Source of the DNA: an uncultured delta proteobacterium
GTDB lineage: Bacteria > Bdellovibrionota_C > UBA2361 > CAIXSY01
DNA: 64,000 nucleotides
Direction: 5' to 3'
Assembly: GCA_903922175.1 (NCBI GenBank)
Contig: CAIXSY010000024.1
Location: forward strand, 634-64,633
Part shown: in pieces, positions 5,571 to 63,420 of the stretch
Layout of the letters: every line of letters starts with the position of its first letter
Position numbering within the stretch: the first letter of the stretch is position 1
Position numbers and translations under genes: made by a program
Notes under the pieces: generated by a model
The model's database searches: none
The model's input: the letters and a program-made list of their open reading frames with translations, nothing else
Told to the model about the DNA's origin: nothing

Positions 5571-5672
5571 CAATATACTAAATTACTATGGAAGTATATG
5601 TATTAGCATATAACGTAACTATAAAAACTGATATCCTGGTATCTGCTCAATAACCTCGGGGAACTTAATAAT

Positions 5673-10722: not shown

Positions 10723-11004
10723 TCAGTGCTTATATCCCACAATCCACAGCAGCATGAGTTTCGCCCATTCCTGGTACGTGTTGTGGTTAACGCGGCGCTT
10801 TGCTTGTACCAATTTGTCCAAAGAGTCCTGCTCGAAGTTGCCACGAGAAATGCCGAGAAGCTCGGCCTGTAGCATTTTAATCGACTCTGTCGTCTCGCAC
10901 TCAATAAAGCCTTCGACTGCTTTCTGATCGGAGATACCCGCGCTGCCGTAATTGTCGACCCAGTACTTGATCTGTTTAAATATTGGCCGCTCTCTACCGG
11001 CCAT
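10723..11004 (-). CDS. Hypothetical small protein translationally coupled to galU
   Basis: 93 aa with no family recognised. Its ATG overlaps the galU stop (TAATG). Confidence 0.4.
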   Translation of the reverse strand: MAGRERPIFKQIKYWVDNYGSAGISDQKAVEGFIECETTESIKMLQAELLGISRGNFEQDSLDKLVQAKRRVNHNTYQEWAKLMLLWIVGYKH

Positions 11005-11897
11005 TAGCCCTCCTTTTTCGTCTGGGCTAGGACCTCACGCATGTAGGCCAAGAGTTTTGGGCGAATGTCTGGGCGTTTTAAGGCATAGGCGACATTCGCT
11101 TGCAGGAACCCAAACTTGTCGCCAGCATCATAGCGCTGCCCTTCAAACTGGAGCCCCAAAAAGCCGTCGCGCCGCATTAAGGTGGCCATGGCGTCAGTGA
11201 TCTGGATTTCACCACCTTTGCCCGGCGCTTGCTTCTCTAGAATGTCGAAAATCGCGGGAGTGAGGATATATCTACCGACGATGGCGCTGTGAGATGGGGC
11301 CTCGGCGAGTTTGGGCTTCTCCACCATGGCGGAGATCTCCATAATCCTATCGGTCATCATCTTGCCGCCACAGATACCGAATTTGGGAACGTCTTCATCT
11401 GAGACCTCCCATAGACCCACAACGGACTTGCCATATTCCTGGTATACATCCAACATCTGCTTCGTGCAGGGGACCTTGGCATCAACCAGGTCGTCGCCGA
11501 GGAGCACGGCAAAGGGCTCGTCTCCGATTACCTGACGCGCGCAGAGCACGGCGTGTCCAAGGCCACGGGGCGTGCCTTGTCGCACGGAGACGATCTGCAC
11601 CATCGAGCGTACTTTGCGTAGGCAGGCCACGAGGTCGTCTTTCCCCTCTTTCTCAAGTTTAGTTTCGAGGTCGAGGTACTGATCAAAGTGATCTTCGATA
11701 GCCTCTTTGCCGCGCCCCGTGATAAACACGACGGTGTCTATTCCAGCATCCATAACCTCTTGGACGATGTATTGGATGGTTGGGATATCGACAATGGGGA
11801 GGAGCTCTTTCGGCACGGCTTTGGTGGCTGGTAAAAAGCGGGTGCCGAGTCCGGCAGCGGGGATGACAGCTTTGCGTACACGAGGTAAGGTTGGCAT
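11004..11897 (-). CDS. galU: UTP--glucose-1-phosphate uridylyltransferase
   Basis: 297 aa. KAVIPAAGLGTRFLPATKAVPKELLPIVDIPTIQYIVQE, VRQGTPRGLGHAV and VEKP are canonical GalU blocks. Confidence 0.95.
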   Translation of the reverse strand: MPTLPRVRKAVIPAAGLGTRFLPATKAVPKELLPIVDIPTIQYIVQEVMDAGIDTVVFITGRGKEAIEDHFDQYLDLETKLEKEGKDDLVACLRKVRSMVQIVSVRQGTPRGLGHAVLCARQVIGDEPFAVLLGDDLVDAKVPCTKQMLDVYQEYGKSVVGLWEVSDEDVPKFGICGGKMMTDRIMEISAMVEKPKLAEAPSHSAIVGRYILTPAIFDILEKQAPGKGGEIQITDAMATLMRRDGFLGLQFEGQRYDAGDKFGFLQANVAYALKRPDIRPKLLAYMREVLAQTKKEG

Positions 11898-11913: not shown

Positions 11914-12100
11914 TGAGTAATTGCTCATTAAGTGTGGGTAACCCTTTCCTAGTCCTGGTTTTGGTCGTGGTCCTAAATCCTGGTCATTGTCAATTGGTCA
12001 ATGTTTTCGGCCAAGAAGAACTAAGACAATGACTGAAGACCAGAACCAAGACCAGGACCAAGATCGAGGCGCTTACGCCCGAGGTTAATGCAACTACTAA
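11914..12100. repeat. Copy A of a dispersed long-hairpin repeat with hexamer periodicity
   Basis: The outer arm GTAATTGCTCATTAAGTGTGGG (11917-11938) pairs with CCCGAGGTTAATGCAACTAC. The inner arms are TCCTGG/TTTTGG/TCGTGG hexamers versus GACCAG/AACCAA/GACCAG/GACCAA. The asymmetric core is TCAATTGGTCAATGTTTTCGGCCAAGAA (11990-12017). It lies in the divergent intergenic region between galU and the first GT-C gene. Confidence 0.7.
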
Positions 12101-19613: not shown

Positions 19614-21106
19614 GAGCAGGAGCTCGGCTAGATCCCCTTCTTTCCTATCTAACCATAGTTGTGGTTGCGGCGGTCGTTGGGCATATGCTTACCGGGCTTG
19701 AGCGCAGTTTGTGGATTGATGAGCTCATTACGTATTGGGTAAGCGCGGACTCTTTCAGCGCCACACTAGATAGGGTCGCTGAGTACCAAGCCCAGGGTCC
19801 GCTCTATTTCTTGCTTATATGGGGAATGCGTCACTGTTTTGGAGAAAGCGAGATCGTCCAACGAATCCCCTCGCTTTTCGCCGGTATCGGGATTTTTGTA
19901 GTTGCCTATAGACTCGCACGGCTTTTTGTCGATCGCAGCGGTGCTGAGATATGTGTGCTCTTACTTGCCGGTGCTTCGTCGATTACCGGGGTCTTCACGT
20001 CGTCTCGTCCCTATGCCCTGGCGATATTGGCCTCACTTCTGGCGACCTACAGCCTCGTGCGCTGGATCAGATGCGGCAAGATACAGTATCAAATAATCTA
20101 TTTCCTATCACTCGTTTCCATGCTGGCGCTCCATTTCTTGTTTGCCGCTCTTATCCCGGCGCATGCTCTGTATGTCCTCGGTATAAAAGGTCGGCAGGCC
20201 TCTCTGGTTAATATCTTCGGAACAATGGGGGCAAGTCTTTTAGTTCTGACTGTGCAGATGTCCCAGCTCCTCACGACGTACTCGCGCCAGGGGGCGTATT
20301 CATTTGTAGAAGCTCCTAATTTAGCTATGGTTGTCGGGGTAGCCTTGCCACTACAGTTGCTCGTTCCGCTGCTTGGTGCTGCCGTCGTTGGCCTTATATG
20401 GACAGCGCTCTATTACAGGCAGGTCAGCCGTCCTTGGACGTTCTCCAGTGATGGAATACGGCTAACCCTCGTTTTGGGGTATGGACCGATGTTAGCCATC
20501 CTTGCCGTATCGCTATGCGGCAAGACCTCGATTTTTTGGGACCGTTATCTGTTAATGAGTCTTATTTATCCCGTATTTCTTGCTGGCTTTTGTATGCGCG
20601 CCTTGTGTCCGGCCCCGGCGGCATGGTGTATCGCTGCCTTTGGGGCGGTTACAGCGCTCCAGATACCCGTCGGCAACCGTCTTGAATATTGGCGCGAGGC
20701 CAATACCTACGCCAATGAAATAATCGCTCGCGATAAACCACTGACTATTGTGTGGATGGGCTTGGTCGAGCAGGAGGACTTAACTTGGTTTAGGAATCCT
20801 AAGCATGAGGCCTACTTTCTTTCGCTCTTGGCAAAATATCCACTCGCAGGGGAGGTGCAGTCTTGGCCGCAGCAGTTTGATGCAGTCGATTTTGACGGGC
20901 AGTATATAGGGCGCTTGGAGCTTTTAAAGACGGAGAAACGACCGGTCCTCCTGGTGATAAGAAACATATTTGACCCTTATCTTTATATGCCACCGGCTCT
21001 TGAGCGCTTCAAGGATCGCTTTGCGCGGCATGGTTTTGAAGAGAGGCTCCGGCGTTGCTTCGTGGGAATCTGTGTTGCGGAGTTTAAGGTGGGCGAAACT
21101 CACTAA
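19610..21106 (+). CDS. GT-C-fold membrane glycosyltransferase (GT39/PMT_2-like)
   Basis: 498 aa and polytopic. The first-loop motif is SLWIDELITYWVS. Confidence 0.7.
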   Translation: MRAGARLDPLLSYLTIVVVAAVVGHMLTGLERSLWIDELITYWVSADSFSATLDRVAEYQAQGPLYFLLIWGMRHCFGESEIVQRIPSLFAGIGIFVVAYRLARLFVDRSGAEICVLLLAGASSITGVFTSSRPYALAILASLLATYSLVRWIRCGKIQYQIIYFLSLVSMLALHFLFAALIPAHALYVLGIKGRQASLVNIFGTMGASLLVLTVQMSQLLTTYSRQGAYSFVEAPNLAMVVGVALPLQLLVPLLGAAVVGLIWTALYYRQVSRPWTFSSDGIRLTLVLGYGPMLAILAVSLCGKTSIFWDRYLLMSLIYPVFLAGFCMRALCPAPAAWCIAAFGAVTALQIPVGNRLEYWREANTYANEIIARDKPLTIVWMGLVEQEDLTWFRNPKHEAYFLSLLAKYPLAGEVQSWPQQFDAVDFDGQYIGRLELLKTEKRPVLLVIRNIFDPYLYMPPALERFKDRFARHGFEERLRRCFVGICVAEFKVGETH

Positions 21107-21328: not shown

Positions 21329-23443
21329 ATGCGCTATGGATCTTCTCTACGACTTTTTCTCCTCAGCATCTTGATTCTATTTCTAGAAATGATGCTTATC
21401 CGCTGGATCGGGACAGAGATTAGAATTTTTGCCTATGTGCAGAATGTTGTCCTCGTGGTGTGCTTTTTGGGGTTGGGAGTAGGGTGTGCTCGTTCGTCGC
21501 AGAAGGGGAGGCTTTGGCAGCTATGCTTGCCGTTGCTGATACTGATTATCCTCGTCAACGTTCCAGTCACGCGGAATGTTTTGCAGCTCATTAGCTCGGA
21601 CCTTTCGACGTTTGACGATACGATCATTTGGTATAAGGCCGTTGTCAACTCGGAAGTGAGCACGTTCGTTCCTATGCTTCAGGGTGTGTTCCTCGCTTTC
21701 GCCGTGTTGTTGTTAATCTTCGATGCCTTTGAAATCCTCGGAAGACACTTGGGCGCGGAGATGGCCACGTCGTCAGGCCGGATCTCTCGCTACTCGGTAA
21801 ATATCGCTGGAAGCCTCGCCGGTATCTGGCTTTTTACCGCAATGAGTTACTGTTCGAGCCCCCCGGCTATTTGGGCTATCGCTTTGGCAATCTTAATTCT
21901 CCTGAGCTTTGTCGACGAGGTCTTGGCCGAGGGAAGACTGCTACTTCTTATTGCCGCTCTCCCGATACCGTTCGTGATATACACCGAAATGGGGACAACG
22001 ACGACGTGGTCTCCCTATCAGAAGCTTTCGATGTCGCCCTACGTGGAGTCTCCGAACAGCGCACAAATGCTGGTGAATAATGTAGGCTACCAGTTGATGT
22101 TGGACTTGAGTGAAGAAAATGTGTTGGGCCACCCTGATGTTTTCTCTCCGAGTCTGCGTACCCTATCTCACTATGATATTCCATTCCGTTTTTCGCCAAA
22201 TCCGAAGAAGGTGTTACTCCTCGGAGCTGGATCGGGCAATGATGCTGCTGGCGCGTTGCGAAATGGGGCCGAACGAATTACCGCAGTGGAGATTGATCCG
22301 GTAATCATCGATCTGGGGATGCGATCTCATCCAGAACATCCCTATGCGTCCGAGCGAGTTACCGTCGTTAATGACGATGCGCGTACGTTCTTGCAGAAGA
22401 CCAACGAAACCTTCGATGTAATTATCTTTGGACTTCTCGACGCGCATACGGGGAATGCGCTCACGAATGTGCGGCTTGACCACTACATTTATACACGGGA
22501 GGCCTTGCTTCAGGCCAAGAGTAGACTGACTCCAGATGGCAAGTTGTTCCTTAGTTTCGGCATGGGATTCCCTTTTATTGCCGCGCGTATAGATCAGCTA
22601 CTCCGTGATGCTTTTGGCGTGCCCCCTCTGAGCTTTATATCCGGAACAACTCCGGCCTACGGATGGGGCGGTACTATGTTTGTGGCAGCTCGAGAGGGGG
22701 AGGTGCAGCGTGCTCTGGCCCTCGATCCGGCCCTCGCTGCCTGGATCGCGCCGCGGAAGATTGCTCATACTACTGCCACAATTGTCCCCACCGATGACTG
22801 GCCGTATCTCTATCTTTCTGCAGCACGCATTCCATCACTGTATTATGTACTTGGCGCCGTGATAGTTGGAGTATCCGCCTTTAGAGGGCGCGGGCTTTGG
22901 CGGCAGGGGCTTGCCCAATGGGGAATGTTTGAAGGACATCTGTTTCTACTTGGTTTTGCCTTTTTACTTCTTGAGGTCCAGAACATAAACAAAGCGGCTC
23001 TAGTGTTTGGGAATACCTGGACGGTTAACGCGATAGTCGTTAGTGGGATCATGATAATGTCACTCTTGTCGAATGCTGTTGCCGCCCTGTTCCCGAGGAT
23101 CTCTAGCACAATTATTTGCAGCGGGTTGGTACTTTCTCTCGTTCTGCTGATTGCACTCCCGGTTTCATTTTTTGGATTGCTTGGCGTACCATTACGCCAG
23201 CTGCTCTACGGCATCGTCGTCTCACTTCCAGTCTTTTTCAGCGGTATCCTGTTTATACGGGCGTTTAATACTTCACGTAACCCCGCACAAGCCCTGGCCG
23301 CAAACCTCCTGGGCGCCTTGTTCGGTGGCCTTCTCCAGTCACTCTCCTTTGTCACGGGAATGCAGACCCTCTTTCTCCTCACTATCGTCGTTTACCTTGG
23401 TGCAATTATAACAAGGCCAAAGGGGGAGGAGGCTCTTCACTAA
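21329..23443 (+). CDS. Polytopic membrane protein with an embedded spermidine-synthase-like (aminopropyl/methyltransferase fold) domain, paralogue 1
   Basis: 704 aa. The N-terminal TM block contains EMMLIRWIGTEIRIFAYVQN. The central Rossmann block reads VLLLGAGSGNDAAGAL, AVEIDP, VVNDDARTFL, FDVIIFGLLDAHT. TDDWPYLYL and a C-terminal TM block follow. Confidence 0.85.
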   Translation: MRYGSSLRLFLLSILILFLEMMLIRWIGTEIRIFAYVQNVVLVVCFLGLGVGCARSSQKGRLWQLCLPLLILIILVNVPVTRNVLQLISSDLSTFDDTIIWYKAVVNSEVSTFVPMLQGVFLAFAVLLLIFDAFEILGRHLGAEMATSSGRISRYSVNIAGSLAGIWLFTAMSYCSSPPAIWAIALAILILLSFVDEVLAEGRLLLLIAALPIPFVIYTEMGTTTTWSPYQKLSMSPYVESPNSAQMLVNNVGYQLMLDLSEENVLGHPDVFSPSLRTLSHYDIPFRFSPNPKKVLLLGAGSGNDAAGALRNGAERITAVEIDPVIIDLGMRSHPEHPYASERVTVVNDDARTFLQKTNETFDVIIFGLLDAHTGNALTNVRLDHYIYTREALLQAKSRLTPDGKLFLSFGMGFPFIAARIDQLLRDAFGVPPLSFISGTTPAYGWGGTMFVAAREGEVQRALALDPALAAWIAPRKIAHTTATIVPTDDWPYLYLSAARIPSLYYVLGAVIVGVSAFRGRGLWRQGLAQWGMFEGHLFLLGFAFLLLEVQNINKAALVFGNTWTVNAIVVSGIMIMSLLSNAVAALFPRISSTIICSGLVLSLVLLIALPVSFFGLLGVPLRQLLYGIVVSLPVFFSGILFIRAFNTSRNPAQALAANLLGALFGGLLQSLSFVTGMQTLFLLTIVVYLGAIITRPKGEEALH

Positions 23444-31014: not shown

Positions 31015-33189
31015 TTAAGAAGGTGAGGTGGCCTTCTTGGTTAGTTGGGCACCACGTATGCTTGTGGCGATCCATGCCGCAGCATATAGCATGATGATGA
31101 CCAGGGTTAGCGCGCGCAGTCCCCATACAAAGGAAAGGACCTGCAGGAACCCACCCGCTACGGCGCCGAGTAAATTGATTCCCAAGGCAAGATTTTTGTC
31201 CTGCGTTTGATCAAATGATCCTGCAAAAATAGAGCTGCTAAAAAAAACTGGGGCCCCGCTTATCAATGCAACCGCCAGTAGTCGCGGTACATACGAGAGA
31301 GTGTAGAGCTGGCTGAAGTCGAGTTTGTATACGAGGAGAAGTGTCACGACGAGCACACCGAAGAGGACGTGTCTGTTGATATGCAGATAGTTTCGCAGCA
31401 ACGTTGCGACAAAGGCCATAAAAAGTACTCCCGAAACGACTGCGGCGCTTACTATCCAGGTTGTTCCACAGAGCAGAGAGGATCGGTTGACAAAATAGAC
31501 TTCCAGAAGCAAAAACGCTGCGCCGAGGAAGAAGAAATGCCACTGATCGCTGTGCCATCGCCAAAAGGTGGCCTGCACGTGCGCCGATCGTCCACCCCAA
31601 AAATAGAGAGCCAGAGTGAGTAAGAAAAGGAAAGCAAAAAGAGAGGGGATCGAGGGGTTTTCTAGGTAAAGATAGGGCCAGTCATCGGTTGAAATTGCGA
31701 ATGATTTGGGACTATTTGACGTAGGCGAGCTTATCATTACGCTAACGACACCATCTGGAAGAAGAGTCCGAAAGCGCTGCAGGCGGTCAGGTGGACCGAT
31801 TACAAATGAGACCGCTCCCGTGTCATATGTGGTCCGTCGTGCTGAAATAGCGAGTGGTGAACTTCCGAAAACGCTGCTGAGCATCTGTTGAATGCGCATG
31901 AATATAAAATTCTCTTGTACGGCAAACCCCAGTACCATCACCCCATCCTTCTTTAGAAGACGCTGTGCGTCACGGAAGCTCTCTTCAGTATAGACATAGT
32001 GATCAAGTCTAATGTTCGAATAGGCAGGTACGGTGTGGGAGTCGAGGAAGGCAAACACAATCAAGTCGAATTTCTTCTTACTTGAACGGAAATACGCACG
32101 AGCGTCGTCATTTACCACGGTAACCCGATCGACTTGGTCGTACGGATGCTCCGGGTGAAAACGCTTACCTATCTCTATAATAGCAGGATCGATATCAACC
32201 GACGTGACATGACGAGCCCCCCAACGCAGAGCTGCTGCAGTATCGTTGCCGGCGCCGGAGCCAACAATCAGGACATTCTCTGGGTTGGGCATCACGAGGT
32301 ACGGAAGATCGTGATCTCCAATAGCGGCTACTGAATTGTGAAACACCTCAGGATGTGCCGCTACCGTGCTGGGAAGTAGGTCGAACATAAACTGGTAGCC
32401 GATATTATTCACGTTGACCTCAAACGAGTTCGGCAAGGAGGTGTGCTGCTTCACGGAAAGCTTTTGATACGGGGACCAGATCTCAAGGATACTGTCGTTG
32501 AGGGGCAAGGCGACACTCCCTCCTAAGACAAAGATTGGGATAATCCACCAGCGCCAGGCTTGGCCGCTAAATACCTGCGAGCGCACAAGGAATAGAATAG
32601 CCAGTGCAAGGCTGCCCCACGCCACCGGCGGAAGCGATGCTAGGCCAACCAGAGCAAAGGCCCAAACTCCGGCCAGGCTCCCCATGATATTCGCACCGTA
32701 CAACGCGAGCGGACGGGAAGTTCGGCCAAAAGCTGAATTTAACGCAACGCCAAAAGGCAGCATCACCTGCCAAACCAGGAGCATGAGAATGAAGCTCAGG
32801 AAGAGTCCTAAGGTAAAGCTCGCGGCGCTTGCTCCCAGTGACGATAGCGCTCCCGGATACCAGATCTGCAAACCATCAAATACGGTAAGGAACAGGCTTG
32901 TCTGCGCGAAAGTCTCTTTAAACGGCGGGAAGGTCAAAAAAGCCCACAATGCGGAGAAGGCGAGTAGAGGGGCTTTGTTGCCACGCAGGACGCCTTTTCC
33001 AAGAAAACCAACTCCCATTGCTAAAAAACAGACGACAAGGATTGAGTTTTGGAGATAGGCGAAAATTCGCACCTCGGTGCTCACCCAGCGGATGAGGAAC
33101 ATCTCCATGAACAATGCTGCGCAGCTCACCGCGAAAACAAATGAGAGCTCTTGGACAGATGAACAACTTTTTAGGTCTTGTTGGCACAT
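31015..33189 (-). CDS. Polytopic membrane protein with an embedded spermidine-synthase-like domain, paralogue 2
   Basis: 724 aa. Blocks are EMFLIRWVSTEVRIFAYLQN, WSPYQKLS, VLIVGSGAGNDTAAAL, SVDIDP, VVNDDARAYF, FDLIVFAFLDSHT and TDDWPYLYL. It is collinear with 21329..23443 but on the opposite strand. Confidence 0.85.
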   Translation of the reverse strand: MCQQDLKSCSSVQELSFVFAVSCAALFMEMFLIRWVSTEVRIFAYLQNSILVVCFLAMGVGFLGKGVLRGNKAPLLAFSALWAFLTFPPFKETFAQTSLFLTVFDGLQIWYPGALSSLGASAASFTLGLFLSFILMLLVWQVMLPFGVALNSAFGRTSRPLALYGANIMGSLAGVWAFALVGLASLPPVAWGSLALAILFLVRSQVFSGQAWRWWIIPIFVLGGSVALPLNDSILEIWSPYQKLSVKQHTSLPNSFEVNVNNIGYQFMFDLLPSTVAAHPEVFHNSVAAIGDHDLPYLVMPNPENVLIVGSGAGNDTAAALRWGARHVTSVDIDPAIIEIGKRFHPEHPYDQVDRVTVVNDDARAYFRSSKKKFDLIVFAFLDSHTVPAYSNIRLDHYVYTEESFRDAQRLLKKDGVMVLGFAVQENFIFMRIQQMLSSVFGSSPLAISARRTTYDTGAVSFVIGPPDRLQRFRTLLPDGVVSVMISSPTSNSPKSFAISTDDWPYLYLENPSIPSLFAFLFLLTLALYFWGGRSAHVQATFWRWHSDQWHFFFLGAAFLLLEVYFVNRSSLLCGTTWIVSAAVVSGVLFMAFVATLLRNYLHINRHVLFGVLVVTLLLVYKLDFSQLYTLSYVPRLLAVALISGAPVFFSSSIFAGSFDQTQDKNLALGINLLGAVAGGFLQVLSFVWGLRALTLVIIMLYAAAWIATSIRGAQLTKKATSPS

Positions 33190-37389: not shown

Positions 37390-38799
37390 ATGAATCAGAA
37401 ACCATGTGTGCAATACGCTGCGGCGGGGATAACGCTAGTCTTTATGGCAGGGGCAGTGCTCCGCATCCTCTCAGGAGTCCTGAGCGAGTTTTCAATTGAT
37501 GAAGTTTGGTCACTCTATTTTGCCGAGCACTCCAAATCGATTTTGGAGATACTTTTTTTTACCAAGCATGATAACAATCATCCGCTTAACACCATTCTCC
37601 TCCGCTATCTGAGTATTTGGAACAGCCCGCTGCTCTATCGTTTACCCGCGCTTCTCACTGGCCTACTTGTACCGGCTGCGGGATGGTATCTGGCGAAAGG
37701 GTGCCGTACCGCTGCGCGCACGTTGTTTGCTCTTTTTCTGGCAAGCTCTTTCCTTCTTATCTTCTACAGCAGCGAAGCACGCGGGTATTCACTCATGCTT
37801 TTTTTTGGACTTCTTGCCCTTATTTGTTTGCGGGACTATGCGGACTCCCCCAAAGCTAGGAAGGCCTTGCTCTATGCGCTCTGCACGGTTCTGGCAGTAT
37901 TATCACACTTTTCATACCTCCGCTTTTTCTTCAGTAGCGTGTTGCTGTCATTTGTTTGTCTAAACCACGTGCCGATAGGGGATCGCGTGCGGCGATTGGC
38001 TGGAATTCATGCGCTTCCTGCGCTGTTGCTTGCGCTGATATATTTTTTTTCTGTGCGTGGGATGTATGTGGCTGGTGGTCAGTTCGGAAGTAGCGGCGAG
38101 GTGCTGCTTAATACCCTCGCCCTTGTCTTGGGTGGTACGCCATTGGAGATCGCCTGCACGAGCTTGCAGACACGTGCCAATAGTGTGTTGGCCATAGTCG
38201 CTATAGCTACGGCACTTGCAGGAACCTATGTTTTGGCACGCGGGCAGCGCAGTGTTCTTTTGGCGATTCTCGTCGCTCTGTTCGTTGTGCCGGTTACCTC
38301 CGGTCTTTTGATTGAGGATCTGGCGCTCTTCCCGCGCTACTTCCTGCCGGAGGTTGTCTTGCTCTATTTCGTGGTCGCGGCGCTGTGTGCTGAGTTGTGG
38401 AGTTCGAAGTCGCTGGGTAAAATTCTTGCGGGTATCGTTGCTAGTGTGATTGTATTCCTAAACTTCTCCCAAGGTATTCGGTTCGTCGAATATGGACGTG
38501 GTGGGGTTTTAACGGCGCTGCGCACTATTGCGGAAGCGCCTCAAGACTCTCCCCAGCGCGTGGCGGCACTTGACAATGGGCGTCTTGGCTGGTTGGTCGA
38601 CTATTACCTGGTGCATGCAAAATTGCCAGGCGTTCTGCGAAATGAGAACGAGCCGATGTGGATTCTCGGCACATCAAGAAGCTCCTGTCCTTCGCCGATT
38701 ACGCAGCTGCGACACCACTCAGAGAACTATGTACTTGTAACGTCCATTCCCTTCTGGGGGCTGTCTGGAGAGGAGACAATGCTCTACCGACGTGAGTGA
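37390..38799 (+). CDS. GT-C-fold membrane glycosyltransferase (GT39/PMT_2-like), intact copy of a duplicated gene
   Basis: 469 aa. The first-loop motif is EFSIDEVWSLYFAE. Its last ~320 codons are repeated at 39830..40793. Confidence 0.65.
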   Translation: MNQKPCVQYAAAGITLVFMAGAVLRILSGVLSEFSIDEVWSLYFAEHSKSILEILFFTKHDNNHPLNTILLRYLSIWNSPLLYRLPALLTGLLVPAAGWYLAKGCRTAARTLFALFLASSFLLIFYSSEARGYSLMLFFGLLALICLRDYADSPKARKALLYALCTVLAVLSHFSYLRFFFSSVLLSFVCLNHVPIGDRVRRLAGIHALPALLLALIYFFSVRGMYVAGGQFGSSGEVLLNTLALVLGGTPLEIACTSLQTRANSVLAIVAIATALAGTYVLARGQRSVLLAILVALFVVPVTSGLLIEDLALFPRYFLPEVVLLYFVVAALCAELWSSKSLGKILAGIVASVIVFLNFSQGIRFVEYGRGGVLTALRTIAEAPQDSPQRVAALDNGRLGWLVDYYLVHAKLPGVLRNENEPMWILGTSRSSCPSPITQLRHHSENYVLVTSIPFWGLSGEETMLYRRE

Positions 38800-39793: not shown

Positions 39794-39829
39794 GAACTCC
39801 TCAACTATGCGCGGTCTTAATCCGACGGC

Positions 39830-40793
39830 ATTATGCGGCTGCCCCTGGAGCTAGGAAGGCCTTCCTCTATGCGCTCTGTACGGTGCGGCAGTATTATCAC
39901 ACTATTCATATCTCCGCTTTTTCTTCAGTAGCGTGTTGCTGTCATTCGTTTGCCTAAACCACGTACCGATAGGGAATCGCGTGCGGCGACTAGTTGGGAG
40001 GCCTGCGCTTCCTGCGCTGCTGCTTACGTTGATCTATTTTCTTTCCGTGCGCGGGATGTATGTAGCTGGTGGTCAGTTCGGAAGTAGCGGCGAGGTGCTG
40101 CTTAATACCCTCGCCCTCGTCTTGGGTGGTACGCCATTGGGGCTCGCCTGCACGAGCTTGCAGGCACGTGCCAATAGTATGTTGGCCATAGTCGCCATAG
40201 GTACGGCACTTGCAGGAACCTATGTTTTGACACGCGGACAACGCAGTGTTCCTTTAGATCTTCTCGTCACTCTGTTCGTCGTGCCGGTTGCCTCCGGTCT
40301 TTTGATTGAGAATCTTGCGATCTTCCCTCGCTACTTCCTGCCGGAGGTTGTTTTGCTCTATTTCGTGGCAGCGACGCTTTGCGCTGAGCTATGGTCCTCG
40401 ACGGCGCTTGGTCGGTTGCTGGCAGGCCTCCTCGTTAGTGTCCTCATCTTCTTTAACCTTGTGCAAGGTGCTAATTTTCTTGTCGATGGACGTGGTGGAG
40501 TTTTAGCGGCGCTGCGCACGGTTGCAAGAGCATCGCAGGAGATCCCCACGCAGGTGGGGGTTCTTGATAGTGAGAGCCTAAGCTGGCTGGTCAACTATTA
40601 TCTGGCGCATGCCCTCATAGAGCAGGTTAAGCGAGATGACCGAGATCCAACTTGGCTGCTGACGGCATCTCGCAGTCCTTATCTGGCGCCAGGCTCGGTT
40701 TTGCAGAGCGGACCTCGGCTCTATGTTCTTAATGCCATGTTCTCCTTCGGCGGGTTGTCGGGAGAGCAGGTAAGGCTCTACCGGCGTAAATGA
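39830..40793 (+). pseudogene. 5'-truncated, frameshifted duplicate of the GT39-like gene 37390..38799
   Basis: ARKAFLYALCTV (track ORF 39766..39957) and then VLSHYSYLRFFFSSVLLSFVCLNHVPIGN (another frame, ORF 39933..40793) follow copy 1 (ARKALLYALCTVLAVLSHFSYLRFFFSSVLLSFVCLNHVPIGD). A 1-nt deletion is seen (GTTCTGGCA versus GTGCGGCA). The first ~150 codons, including the acidic loop motif, are absent. Confidence 0.7.
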
Positions 40794-58429: not shown

Positions 58430-58738
58430 TTAAGCCGCAATTCTTTCAAGTTGCTTCAGGTGGGCGTATTTGGAGCTGTCAACTTGGCTAAGTTCCCACT
58501 GTTTCTGCATATTGAGCCACATCTGCGCGCTGACCCCGAAAACGCGACCGAGTGCCGTAGCCATTTCAGCAGATACGCCTCGCTTGCCTCGGCAGATCTC
58601 GTTAATTTTTGCCGGATCCACCCCAAGATGACGGGCTAGTTTTAATTGTGAGGCGCCGCAATCCTTAAGCCAATCCTGCAAAATCTCGCCAGGATGAACA
58701 GCAATCGGGAAATCCCCGTTTAAATCCTTCTTCGTCAT
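58430..58738 (-). CDS. higA: HigA-family HTH antitoxin
   Basis: 102 aa. HPGEILQDWLKDCGASQLKLARHLGVDPAKINEICRGKRGVSAEMATALGRVFGVSAQMWLNMQ is canonical HigA/VapI. Confidence 0.85.
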   Translation of the reverse strand: MTKKDLNGDFPIAVHPGEILQDWLKDCGASQLKLARHLGVDPAKINEICRGKRGVSAEMATALGRVFGVSAQMWLNMQKQWELSQVDSSKYAHLKQLERIAA

Positions 58739-58749
58739 AAAATTCTTCC

Positions 58750-59046
58750 TTAGTGGTAGTCTGTAATCTCAACTCGATCGGCATCCGCTCCGCTCCAACG
58801 AAAACAGATTCGATACTGGTCGTTTATCCTTATAGCAAACTGCCCCTTGCGATCCTTTTGCAATGAATGCAGGTTTAACCCAGGCGCTTTTTTTAAGTCA
58901 GCCAAGGACGTTGCGGAAGCCAGTACAAATAACTTCTTTCTTCCCATTCGATGTAATACTTCGGGCAGCACTTTACGTGATTCCTTAGATTGCTGTCTAA
59001 GCGCAATATCCTTGGTTCCAGAATCGTAGTAGGACCTGATTGCCAT
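58750..59046 (-). CDS. higB: HigB-family (RelE/ParE superfamily) toxin
   Basis: From internal ATG 59046. LADLKKAPGLNLHSLQKDRKGQFAIRINDQYRICFRWSGADADRVEITDYH is the plasmid-maintenance killer signature. It lies upstream of higA, the usual reversed order. Confidence 0.8.
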   Translation of the reverse strand: MAIRSYYDSGTKDIALRQQSKESRKVLPEVLHRMGRKKLFVLASATSLADLKKAPGLNLHSLQKDRKGQFAIRINDQYRICFRWSGADADRVEITDYH

Positions 59047-59123
59047 ATTGACAGTATGGCACATTGGGCCAATAACCTCAAGCAACAATTGTGCCTTTAC
59101 GCCCTCTGTCATCCCGAAGAGCG

Positions 59124-59447
59124 CTAGCGACGAGCGGCCTCCGTCGTTGGGGGCGACGGAGGCCGCTCGTCGTTCTCCCCTTTTTTAAGGCGGTAAGTAT
59201 TAAGACTCGCCTGCACCAGAGGCAGCAATCGCTGCGCGGTATCGTTATGCCCTTTTATGTTCCAATGTCCATCGATGCGATAATAGAGATCGCTAGCCTC
59301 TGGTTTCGAAGGCAGGCGCACCAGCGCTATTCCGAGGGCGGCAAGGCGCTGCTCAAGGATCTTAGCCCGCTCACCTTCTGCGCCGACACAGGCAAATACC
59401 ACAGGCCACCCATTCTTTTGACAGAGGGCTAGGGGCCTGTCCTTCAA
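59124..59447 (-). pseudogene. C-terminal remnant of an SGNH-family hydrolase
   Basis: Only the last ~90 residues are present, with the block V motif IDGHWNIKGH (compare GEGHPNPKGH in 28420..29331). There is no block I and no anchor. The 3' end of the ORF runs into the hairpin. Confidence 0.45.
59128..59186 (+). terminator. Perfect 19-bp GC-rich hairpin followed by a T-rich run (intrinsic-terminator-like)
   Basis: CGACGAGCGGCCTCCGTCG - TTGGGGG - CGACGGAGGCCGCTCGTCG is followed by TTCTCCCCTTTTTT. No convincing plus-strand gene ends here, so its role is unclear. Confidence 0.45.
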
Positions 59448-59592
59448 GTTCCTTCATGTGGTCGTATTTGGAACTGTCAATTTGGCTAGCTTTAATTGTG
59501 ATGCACCGCACTCCTTAAGCCAATCCTGCTCAGCGCAAGAGTTCCTCGGTGGTGATAATTCGATCAAAGTATGCACCTTGAGCCATCTCTTT
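59444..59592 (-). pseudogene. Decayed higA-like antitoxin gene with an internal deletion
   Basis: Bases 59444-59489 match higA 58445-58492, and 59490-59529 match higA 58640-58680. The junction falls at a GGCTAG microhomology present at both deletion ends in the intact gene. The frame is broken. Confidence 0.55.
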
Positions 59593-59810: not shown

Positions 59811-60010
59811 AGTAGTTAAGGCTTAATCGAGTAACTGCTCAATGACCCCGGGCGGAAGTGCCCAGATCCTAGCCCTGGTCTTGATTCTGGCCTAAGTCAT
59901 AGTCGTGTTCTTGGCCGAAATCATTGACCAATTGATCATGACCAGGATTTAGGACCAGGACCAAAGCCAAAACCAAGACTGTAGTACCCGGGGTTATTGA
60001 GCACTTACCA
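59811..60010. repeat. Copy B of the dispersed long-hairpin repeat, inverted relative to copy A
   Basis: The outer arms are GTAACTGCTCAATGACCCCGGG (59831-59852) and CCCGGGGTTATTGAGCACTTAC (59987-60008). The core TTCTTGGCCGAAATCATTGACCAATTGA (59908-59935) is the reverse complement of the copy A core, with 27 of 28 nt identical. Confidence 0.7.
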
Positions 60011-60186
60011 AGAATCGCTCTAACCAATTGATCATACATGTCTTATTTGAACGTTCCGAATTTAGAAAGTGATAACTTTCTAAATTTAGAAAATGTACTA
60101 TTTGCAAAATCAGCAGCCGTCAAGTGGCCCCGACATTTTTTATCCTGGTAGCGATTTATTACTAGCTCCTGTCCGTAGGACAGGAA

Positions 60187-62214
60187 CTACTTCACGATAC
60201 TCCACAAGCTGGCATAATCATCAGTCCATAGCCTAAAATCCGGCTGGGCGATGAGTGGCTGCGAAGCCTCGGCGAGTAATGGATGTTGAAAGATCGCTTC
60301 GGAACGGCTCAGGATCACGTACTCATTCTCCATTGAGCCTTGAGCCGCATCACCAGAACTTTCGGTGTACCTGCCTTCCAGGTGTAGCCTCTCTGCTGCC
60401 CGGGCGAGTACGGGTTTAAGGTCGAGGTAGAGGTTGGAGATGTGAAAAACGATGACACCGCTGGAGGTAAGATGTGAAAGATAAAGTTCGAGTGCCTCGT
60501 GGGTTACGAGGTGCACCGGGATGGAGTCTCCGTTAAAAGCATCTATGATGATTATGTCGTAGAGAGCCTGTGCACTAAGGCGCTCCATTCCCAATCTGCC
60601 GTCACCGTAAACCACCTTTACGCTAGCTGGAGTCATCGAGAGAAAAGAGAAATTTGCTTGCGCGACATCGATAATGTCCGGGTTAATGTCCCAGAAGGTA
60701 ATACGATCACCGGCTTGCCCGTAAGCGGCTAGCGTTCCACTGCCCAGGCCAATGATGGCGATATCTCGGCCCTGGTTGTGGTTGAAAGATCGGAACACTC
60801 TGCCGACGCCACTTGTTGGTGCGTAATAGGTAGTTGGGCGCATCGGGTCATCTATAAATTGGATGCCGTGGCGTATGGTGCCGTGAAATAGCTCTCGTCG
60901 CCTGTGGCCTTGTCGGTCAGTTGATTCGCGTACCCTGGTGACGCCAAAGAAACTTCGTCTTGAGATCAAGTCAGTGTTGTCGCTCCCCATGCGCAGGCTA
61001 AGTGCAGTACCACCGCAGGCAAGGAGCAGAAGAGAGATCGTCGCCATGCTCCTGGTGAGTAATCCGCGACTAAAGACCTTGTCGGATTCGAGGAGCCGCA
61101 GCAGCACGAGGAGCGCGCAGAACTGAAAGCCAAGGGCGTATTCTGTATAATCAGAGAAGATATGCGGTGCGATAACCGAAACAAATAGGGCCCCCACGGC
61201 ACCACCAAGGGCGGTGACGAAGTAAAAGAGCGAGAGATACCTAGCCGCAGGCTTACAGGCGACGAGCTCTCCATTGCAGAGTAGGCAGCCAAAGAATAGC
61301 GCGCTAAGGGCAGTGATGATAAGGAGTTGCAGTGACCCTCCCTGGAGGTGCAGGAGGGTCATCAAGCTAAGTGCCACAAAGTAGAGAATGATAACAATTT
61401 TGCGTTTATAGAGTGGTCGGCGAGCAAAGGTGACGACGTAGGAGAGAAGGAACAGGGCGAGCGGGATAACCCAGAGGAGGGGGATAGAAGCTACGTCTCG
61501 GCAGAGGTGGTTTGTAGTGGCAAGGAGCAGCCACGAGGAGCAAACCGAGAGAAGGAACCATTCAAAGATAATCCGTCCACAGGGACGAGCCTCGGCGATC
61601 TCTGCCGTGGAAGGCAGCGCCGCTTTGGCTGTGGTGTCGGTCTGGCGGTAGTACTGGATCGCTTGAATGACGATCATCGCCGAAAATATGGCAAAGCCCC
61701 AGGACCAGAGGATGCTCTGACTGCTTAGGTAGAGGCTCGGCTCGACTAAGAATGGGTACGATAGCAGTCCTAGGAATGATCCGAGATTTGAAAGCGCGTA
61801 GAGCCAGTAGGGCGACTTTTCTGAGCGAAAGGTATGGCGCCAGGATTGGAGCAGCGGGGCGGTCGCGGATAAGATAAAGAAAGGAGCTCCGAGGGTTCGC
61901 ATCAATACCCAGAGCAGGTGAACTATCGGATCCTCCGTGCCGAGCGGACGAAGCGTAGCTTGAGGGACGATCGGTAGTGTGTAAAGCGCAGCTGCGAGTG
62001 CCAGCAGATGCAAGATAAGCTGCGTTCGCGGCCGACAAAACTTAGAAAGTAGGTAGGCCCAGCCATAACCTAGGAGAAGCACTGTTTGGAAGAAAAGCAG
62101 GCAGGTCGTCCAGACGCTGGCCACCCCACCGTACCAGGGCAGGATCCACTTGCTGATCAACGGTTCTACCAGGAAGAGGAGGAAGGCGCTTAGGAATGTT
62201 AGGGTGGGGGTCAT
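60187..62214 (-). CDS. Polytopic membrane protein with a C-terminal spermidine-synthase-like domain, paralogue 3
   Basis: 675 aa. About 11 N-terminal hydrophobic helices are followed by IAIIGLGSGTLAAY, FWDINP, VVYGDGRLGM and YDIIIIDAFNGDSIPVHL. Confidence 0.85.
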   Translation of the reverse strand: MTPTLTFLSAFLLFLVEPLISKWILPWYGGVASVWTTCLLFFQTVLLLGYGWAYLLSKFCRPRTQLILHLLALAAALYTLPIVPQATLRPLGTEDPIVHLLWVLMRTLGAPFFILSATAPLLQSWRHTFRSEKSPYWLYALSNLGSFLGLLSYPFLVEPSLYLSSQSILWSWGFAIFSAMIVIQAIQYYRQTDTTAKAALPSTAEIAEARPCGRIIFEWFLLSVCSSWLLLATTNHLCRDVASIPLLWVIPLALFLLSYVVTFARRPLYKRKIVIILYFVALSLMTLLHLQGGSLQLLIITALSALFFGCLLCNGELVACKPAARYLSLFYFVTALGGAVGALFVSVIAPHIFSDYTEYALGFQFCALLVLLRLLESDKVFSRGLLTRSMATISLLLLACGGTALSLRMGSDNTDLISRRSFFGVTRVRESTDRQGHRRRELFHGTIRHGIQFIDDPMRPTTYYAPTSGVGRVFRSFNHNQGRDIAIIGLGSGTLAAYGQAGDRITFWDINPDIIDVAQANFSFLSMTPASVKVVYGDGRLGMERLSAQALYDIIIIDAFNGDSIPVHLVTHEALELYLSHLTSSGVIVFHISNLYLDLKPVLARAAERLHLEGRYTESSGDAAQGSMENEYVILSRSEAIFQHPLLAEASQPLIAQPDFRLWTDDYASLWSIVK

Positions 62215-63059: not shown

Positions 63060-63328
63060 AGGGAACGGGCAATTAAATAATCTTCGCGTGAGCCGTTTTT
63101 CCTGAGCGCACGGGCGATGCTCGGGAGCATCTCTTCAGAGATAACCAAATCTCTGGGCATATACCAGAAACAGCTAGCATACTTAATTCGAAACTGCTCT
63201 TTGGCAAGTGCTAGTCTTTGCTTCAAAGATAACGCTTCGTCGGCACTCATAGTTTTCATTTTAGCATGTAGAGCGATTATTGGAAACTTGGCTAGGGATA
63301 CACGTAATTGCTCATCAAGTGTGGGCAC
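63050..63328 (-). CDS. Small hypothetical protein upstream of the nucleotidyltransferase (possible antitoxin); true start probably internal
   Basis: The track ORF starts at GTG 63328, inside repeat copy C. The ATG codons near 63259/63250 (MKTMSADE) are more plausible starts. No family recognised. Confidence 0.3.
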   Translation of the reverse strand: MPTLDEQLRVSLAKFPIIALHAKMKTMSADEALSLKQRLALAKEQFRIKYASCFWYMPRDLVISEEMLPSIARALRKNGSREDYLIARSLCP

Positions 63329-63420
63329 TACAGTCTTGGTTCTGGTTTTGGTCCTGGTCTTAATATCTTGGTCTTGTGCCTGGTCTTGGTCAAAAAGGCC
63401 AAAAATGACCAGAAGTTAGG
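63304..63420. repeat. Copy C (shorter variant) of the dispersed hairpin repeat
   Basis: GTAATTGCTCATCAAGTGTGGG (63304-63325) matches the copy A outer arm at 21 of 22 nt. TCTTGG/TTCTGG/TTTTGG/TCCTGG hexamers follow, with a reduced core TTGGTCAAAAAGGCCAAAAATGACCA. Confidence 0.55.

Follow-up and report, generated by a model that had tools for sequence, protein, structure and literature searches.

The window, by which we mean the whole stretch of 64,000 nucleotides analyzed here, belongs to an ENA metagenome contig about 65 kb long. Pfam scans and precomputed annotations show in it a large region of polysaccharide and glycosyltransferase genes, with the toxin–antitoxin modules HipBA, BrnTA, HigBA, and AbiE on its flanks. 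The gene galU is located on the minus strand (11004-11897), and its 5′ leader contains a full-length repeat element of 181 nt (copy A, 11917-12097, plus strand), 19 nt before the galU ATG. The original prediction had placed this element in the gap between galU and the first GT-C gene. The position in the galU leader is confirmed, but the adjoining open reading frame on the plus strand (12178/12286-13794) has no Pfam match and the PMT_2 gene lies farther along.

The surroundings of the element deserve a short description. Many GT-C/PMT_2, GT87, and acyltransferase genes form an unusually dense envelope-glycan locus, amid which three large membrane proteins of 675–724 aa are encoded (21329-23443, 31015-33189, and 60187-62214). 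These proteins look paralogous. The first two carry a Spermine_synth/methyltransferase Pfam domain; the third has no Pfam match and is grouped with them by size and membrane character only. Within the glycan-biosynthesis region there are also two direct repeats of about 360 nt (37831-38192 and 39826-40186; 83–91% identical, 1994 nt apart), which look like a duplicated gene segment; the open reading frames concerned (37390-38799 and 39933-40793) are both without a Pfam match. A contig from a second sample (L002) was compared with L001. The two do not differ around galU and copy A, but L002 continues with different genes (tRNA U5-methyltransferase, YkuD, Vut_1, and GH3) from window position ~17.9 kb on, about 6 kb into the glycan cluster. 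Thus, the glycan cluster, which is bounded by copies A and B, varies between strains.

The galU hairpin and its dispersed copies

Copy A starts with a left terminal inverted repeat of the GTGTGGG type (GTAATTGCTCATTAAGTGTGGG, 11917-11938, plus strand). Its right outer arm (CCCGAGGTTAATGCAACTAC, 12078-12097), read as reverse complement on the minus strand (GTAGTTGCATTAACCTCGGG), is the right terminal inverted repeat, which is of the CCyCGGG type and has a 2-nt deletion. Between the two repeats follow a left stem arm of tandem TGGTCY-type hexamers (11953-11989, plus strand; TCCTGG TTTTGG TCGTGG), a non-palindromic apex that contains a stretch of 28 nt termed the core (TCAATTGGTCAATGTTTTCGGCCAAGAA, 11990-12017, plus strand), and a right stem arm of GACCAR hexamers (12025-12063, plus strand; GACCAG and AACCAA) with a TRF period of 6/12. 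Arms, hexamers, and core are present where they had been described. The RNA is predicted to fold into one long hairpin of −71.9 kcal/mol (z −5.3), a value reached by 0 of 200 shuffles, and the DNA fold has a z of −4.0. The hexamer periodicity is real as well: autocorrelation at period 6 is significant in copies A, B, C, and D (z 3.7–5.9, with 5.9 for copy A) and TRF reports period-6 arrays at 12036-12063 in copy A (period 6/12) and at 63333-63391 in copy C.

The long-hairpin architecture indeed belongs to a dispersed repeat family. Copy B is likewise full-length (178 nt, 59831-60008, minus strand), and both of its ends, at 59831-59852 and 59987-60008, are of the CCCCGGG type. It aligns to copy A with 75% identity over 183 columns (BLASTN E 3e-30) and has a DNA fold with a z of −4.6. 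With a single change, the core of copy A recurs at 59908-59935 (minus strand); shuffles give an expectation of 0 such matches. The predicted second copy with a 27/28 core on the opposite strand is therefore correct, but its span has to be narrowed from 59811-60010 to the coordinates given above. Copy B is flanked by debris of a HigBA toxin–antitoxin module and by the 3′ end of a gene for a 675-aa protein. The debris consists of a pair of HigB-like toxin and HTH antitoxin, after which the 5′ region of the antitoxin is present once more in degenerate form (58430-59576), visible as a direct repeat of 91% identity (58634-58679 and 59484-59529). On the other side, in the interval from copy B to the stop codon of the gene for the 675-aa protein, a spermidine-synthase-like membrane protein, there is an AT-rich near-palindrome (GAATTTAGAAAGTGATAACTTTCTAAATTTAGAAAATG..., 60058-60111).

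Copy C (63304 to ~63421, plus strand) was thought to be a shortened hairpin. It is related, but it is 3′-truncated: the left repeat of the A type (63304-63325) is followed by a B-type subterminal stretch and the period-6 array (63333-63391), the apex is partly deleted, the right repeat is missing, and the fold is not significant (z −1.6). The putative start of AbiEi is about 47 nt downstream of it. Two open reading frames inside copies B and C, which encode 56 aa (59869-60039, minus strand) and 100 aa (63117-63419, plus strand) and are called genes in public assemblies, are almost certainly spurious since they translate the hexamer arms into LVLVLV... and DQDQ... stretches. Used as bait against the protein collection, the 56-aa sequence matched itself alone. 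Recognition of the family removes both from the annotation.

The search for more copies, which the original prediction had proposed, was productive. A fuzzy search with the terminal 22-mer retrieved a solo terminal repeat, copy F (GTATCTGCTCAATAACCTCGGGG, 5639-5661, plus strand). It sits directly past the BrnA stop codon, between the BrnT/BrnA module and an HTH/HipA module, and is what remains of an earlier insertion into this toxin–antitoxin cluster. Copy D lies past the end of the window (equivalent to window ~64008-64378) and was read from a sister assembly of the same contig (L014:1-371, minus strand of L014). It is 371 nt long, starts with GTAACTGCTCAATAACCCCGGG and finishes with ...CAGGGGTTATTTGCATAC, a degenerate right end that is located exactly at the end of the 65,033-nt contig. 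Its interior is composed of CTTGGC-type hexamers and forms two long hairpins (z −6.6).

Further members are found in a second organism. The nearest GTDB relative by GalU, and the only close one, is a MAG named 'uncultured Bdellovibrionales bacterium' (L018) with 76% GalU identity. It carries element E (L018:17872-18012), which has the ends GTAATTACTCATTAACCCCGGGG and, as reverse complement, GTAACAAGTCATTAAGTGTGGGTAGC. The interior of element E is a hairpin of CTCTGTG repeats (z −8.1) without hexamer periodicity. A deleted copy, E2, is found 2.6 kb away (L018:~20595-20693), and a further 7 kb of this MAG contig contained no additional intact copy. In two other loci (L106:12930-13010 and, in another relative, L099:13470-13570) there are degenerate E-like CACAGAG/CTCTGTG hairpins, which are intergenic, 3′ of genes and bordered by A-runs and T-runs at either side. 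These look like decayed E-type copies which now resemble bidirectional terminators. The GalU neighborhoods of more distant relatives (L100-L104 and L107-L109) contain no copies. About eight copies of the family are known from two metagenomic lineages: the 65-kb contig has them at five dispersed loci, and 21 kb of the related MAG contain at least two. The copies are 145–371 nt in size, and their internal open reading frames are only low-complexity artefacts.

Terminal repeats, interiors, and apex

What the members have in common are their ends. In both genomes we find a terminal inverted repeat of about 22 nt with the consensus GTAAyTGCTCAwTAA(GTGT/CCCC)GGG; as a 22-nt search pattern it reads GTAAYTGCTCAWTAASYSYGGG. 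With up to 3 mismatches allowed, the 22-mer has 5 matches in the 64-kb window versus 0 in 1.35 Mb of unrelated genomes. Copies A, B, D, and E have this repeat at both ends, and C, F, and E2 at a single end. A run of 16 consecutive nucleotides, TCATTAAGTGTGGGTA, is identical between the left end of copy A and one end of element E, and on the GTGTGGG side the homology of A and E reaches about 36 nt. The two end subtypes, ...AAGTGTGGG and ...AACCCCGGG, are both present in both organisms. Copies A and E bear one end of each subtype, as would be expected if the left and right ends of a parent element differ slightly.

The interiors, in contrast to the ends, are swapped wholesale between members: TGGTCY hexamers in the copies described first, CTTGGC hexamers in copy D, and CTCTGTG heptamers in element E. 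The family is defined by its ends and not by the stem repeats or the apex. Searches outside the two lineages found no further members. The exact core pattern has no match in the GTDB species genomes, the 22-nt terminal-repeat pattern none in IMG/VR, and plasmids and phages yielded no BLASTN match to copy A. A 21-nt pattern from the arms (TGGYTTTGGTCSTGGTCYTAA) gave 8 matches in JGI metagenomes, all of them unrelated GGTCTT arrays or chance matches without the family ends. Several of the JGI contigs (L006:2400-2520, L009:1480-1560, L010:2000-2120, and L011:1000-1070) contain a different dispersed repeat of an AT-rich organism, in which one-sided GGTCTT hexamer arrays without an inverted partner arm are framed by TTTGTTTACTTCCGG...GGTCTTGTTTACATCACTG. 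The 21–27 nt common to these arrays and the arms of copy C are low-complexity convergence. An origin in cyanobacteria or a relation to STRR/HIP1 repeats was also considered and discarded, with 0 HIP1 sites found. Chance similarity as an explanation of the whole family, which could appeal to the low complexity of the hexamer arms and to the matches of the 21-nt arm pattern in unrelated JGI GGTCTT arrays, is refuted by the A/B alignment (E 3e-30), by the terminal repeats occurring 5 times here versus not at all in 1.35 Mb, and by the preservation of the ends in a second genome.

From the near-perfect conservation of the apical core the original prediction had proposed a protein-binding site or a structured RNA loop. 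This claim is not supported. The core is present only in copies A and B; the apex is partly deleted in C and replaced by other sequence in D and E. Permutation of the A/B mismatch positions shows that a 28-nt block with 27/28 identities is not significant (p 0.07). The best block of 46 nt reaches p 0.013, was chosen post hoc, and runs into the left arm but not into its partner. Moreover, copy C is a mosaic in which an A-type end is joined to a B-type subterminal stretch; the copies thus exchange segments. Such exchange is a simpler source of locally high A/B identity than a conserved core. As to compensatory changes between the arms, for which the original prediction had proposed a test, three stem pairs are indeed altered on both sides between A and B, but one of the three lies within the terminal repeat and a comparison of two sequences says little.

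Insertion sites

The empty-site comparison concerns one site, that of copy A. A metagenomic relative with a 91% identical GalU (L098) supplies 100 nt upstream of galU, and in this leader nothing resembles the element. The block of the ribosome binding site is homologous (CTTTAGGGGAG versus CTTTAGAGGAG), a ATCAAGTATA box is found, and the window from which copy A has been removed aligns with L098 across the junction. Copy A itself is located between a putative −10 box and the ribosome binding site of galU. Judged by this alignment the site of copy A is empty in the close relative, which amounts to a filled/empty polymorphism at galU. After removal of copy A, the distance from the −10-like box to the ribosome binding site is about 10 nt longer in the window than in L098. 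Such an excess could result from an 8-bp duplication together with small indels, but it does not prove one.

Flanking sequences were compared for direct duplications. The 8-bp flanks match at 6 of 8 positions in element E (p about 0.004), at 4 of 8 in copy A, and at 1 of 8 in copy B. An inversion between A and B as cause of the mismatched flanks was rejected, as the swapped flanks match at just 4 of 8 and 2 of 8 positions. The insertions are found in AT-rich intergenic DNA, often 20–50 nt before start codons (A, C, and E) or right after stop codons (B and F), and both orientations relative to the neighboring genes occur. An AAA_14/DUF4143 ATPase open reading frame adjoining element E has no close orthologue. 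Logan short-read unitigs terminate within copies A and C, and the 65-kb contig stops at the terminus of copy D, as expected of a multi-copy repeat. The family thus explains why assemblies of this uncultured lineage break at these places, and it marks the edges of the strain-variable glycan region and the toxin–antitoxin clusters as sites of mobile-element traffic.

Proposed origin and comparison with known systems

[quoted passage not shown] The copies are small and non-coding, they share terminal repeats, they occur multiple times, and one site, at galU, is filled here and empty in a relative. The ends start with GTAA and resemble those of IS66/ISBst12 members, as would be expected of a derivative. 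The original prediction recognized no known class in the element. This is correct with respect to REP and BIME, attC sites, riboswitches, and the Rfam families, but the anatomy is that of a MITE and the ends are of the IS66/ISBst12 type. What had been named as fatal to the prediction, membership in a known IS or MITE family, has thus largely come true in kind.

We suggest that the mobilization proceeds as follows. The enzyme would be a DDE transposase whose gene lies elsewhere in the genome, with the ISBst12 group of the IS66 family as its most likely affiliation. It would bind both ends and insert the element into AT-rich intergenic DNA close to the starts of genes. Insertion probably makes an 8-bp target duplication. 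The interior would be dispensable cargo, which need only be short, and could change rapidly, through slippage of its short tandem repeats and through exchange of segments among the copies, while self-complementarity is kept. This would explain why each copy folds as one long hairpin, and why hexamer stems are found here and heptamer stems in the relative within the same terminal frame. Our statements on the rebuilding of the interior by slippage, on the transposase, on the length of the target duplication, and on current activity of the family are inferences. Copy A would then be a passenger hairpin in the galU leader, and effects on the expression of galU or AbiE are possible as secondary consequences.

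It is also conceivable, although rather unlikely, that the long snap-back stem itself is under selection, be it for a role as transposition intermediate or for one as exapted RNA hairpin. A near-perfect stem rebuilt at least three times from different tandem repeats in one terminal frame would imply selection for snap-back. An exapted RNA module could be a target of RNase III or a leader hairpin tuning galU and the AbiE toxin–antitoxin pair. If this reading were true, the apex of A and B would be a real binding site.

Less probable still is a structured RNA family, that is, a cis-regulatory leader or small RNA with a functional apical loop and a stem kept by compensatory changes. The very stable RNA fold, the position of copy A in the galU leader between the putative −10 box and the ribosome binding site, the 27/28 core, and the three two-sided pair changes would fit such an RNA. 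They have to be weighed against the p of 0.07 for core conservation, an apex that C has lost in part and that D and E lack, although all of them have kept termini of the family, and one of the three apparently compensatory pairs falling into the terminal repeat. In addition, the copies are found upstream (A, C, and E) as well as downstream (B and F) of genes and in both orientations. At gathering thresholds Rfam gave 0 matches, and permissive searches returned generic eukaryotic miRNA-hairpin models only (18–28 bits versus gathering thresholds of 77–150), so that no family comes near its threshold. Searches for tRNA, tmRNA, or another known RNA family gave no match. A promoter scan found no consensus promoter within the element and likewise no outward-directed one.

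A REPIN-like doublet would consist of two inverted REPs mobilized by a RAYT, an IS200-like Y1 transposase. REPs have a GTAG head. The ends of the present family begin with GTAA or GTAG, the whole unit is a hairpin, and the flanking duplications of A and B are unclean, all of which is reminiscent of a REPIN, and like REP, BIME, and REPIN sequences the copies are dispersed intergenic palindromes. A REP unit, however, is itself a palindrome of 20–40 nt which is moved by a RAYT without target duplication, whereas the 22-nt end is not palindromic beyond CCCCGGGG and a RAYT gene is present neither in the window nor in the annotations of the related loci. The 6/8 match of the 8-bp flanks of element E fits DDE transposition, and the outer 11 nt match an IS66-family end. 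We therefore regard a REPIN as improbable.

Very improbable, finally, is a palindrome exapted by the host as an intrinsic terminator or mRNA-stabilizing hairpin and spread by recombination instead of transposition. It would account for the E-like hairpins of L099 and L106, which lie between genes with A/T runs on both sides, and for the location of copy B downstream of a gene. But copies A, B, and C have no T-run past the stem, and a terminator scan finds none in the element. Copies A, C, and E are located upstream of start codons, with A and E between genes that are not convergent, and the conserved ends lie outside the stem where a terminator does not need them.

We return to the MITE and the question of its parent. 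Pfam scans and precomputed annotations revealed no transposase in the window, and none was seen in the related loci (about 150 kb, including L018 and L099-L109). IS66-family ends begin with GTAA(GCG), and the family makes 8-bp duplications (PMC11946415; PMC12888890). ISDge4 of Deinococcus geothermalis, which belongs to the ISBst12 group of the IS66 family, has the ends GTGACTACTCAGCA and GTAACTGCTCAGCA, an 8-bp direct repeat, and a transposase of 449 aa which makes it autonomous (PMC12898284). At the ends of copies B and D the outermost 11 nt, GTAACTGCTCA, are the same as in an ISDge4 end (PMC12898284), as seen by comparing GTAACTGCTCAGCA with GTAACTGCTCAATAACCCCGGG, and the 8-bp repeats of ISDge4 fit the 6/8 flanks of element E. 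ISDge4 differs from our family in that the ends diverge after position 11, the host belongs to another phylum, and the element is autonomous. Classical IS66 elements with GTAAGCG ends (PMC11946415, PMC12888890) and ISGka4 on pHTA426 (GTyGTAwCTATTCAGCCC; classed as ISLre2 in PMC8024623 and as 'IS66-like' in the plasmid record) also have GTAA... ends and 8–9-bp duplications. Here the likeness is confined to the first 4–6 nt and the elements are full-length insertion sequences with transposase genes. The identity of 11 nt to ISDge4, the GTAA ends, and the 8-bp flanks of element E make an IS66/ISBst12-like parent our best guess. We put it forward tentatively, at somewhat short of even odds, the link being the 11-nt identity to one published repeat. 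Our literature search retrieved no MITE family with ends of this type; if the link is true, the present elements add one.

Compared with bacterial MITEs such as Correia/CREE of Neisseria, ERIC/IRU of enterobacteria, RUP of pneumococcus, Nezha of cyanobacteria, MITEAba12, and MITEPsy1/2, the general anatomy is the same. These are non-coding elements of 100–400 nt that are bounded by terminal inverted repeats. Their intergenic copies are numerous, lie in either orientation, and are in part truncated; they form long stem–loops, can be missing from a relative, and are often transcribed together with the neighboring genes. Our family has zero sequence similarity to them, and its ends are IS66/ISBst12-like and not IS630-, IS5-, or IS1-like. 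Further differences are the unclean flanking duplications and the stem, which is made of tandem 6–7-nt repeats that differ by subfamily.

In summary, the family is an ordinary kind of genomic parasite which is unusual only in its stem of short tandem repeats. The stem is a small curiosity with regard to how palindromic elements evolve, and none of the results touches a long-standing open question. Foldback (FB) elements of Drosophila and other eukaryotes likewise have long inverted arms composed of short tandem repeats, by which the entire element folds back on itself into a hairpin. This likeness is an analogy only: foldback elements are eukaryotic, of kilobase scale, and unrelated to the present family in sequence and transposase.
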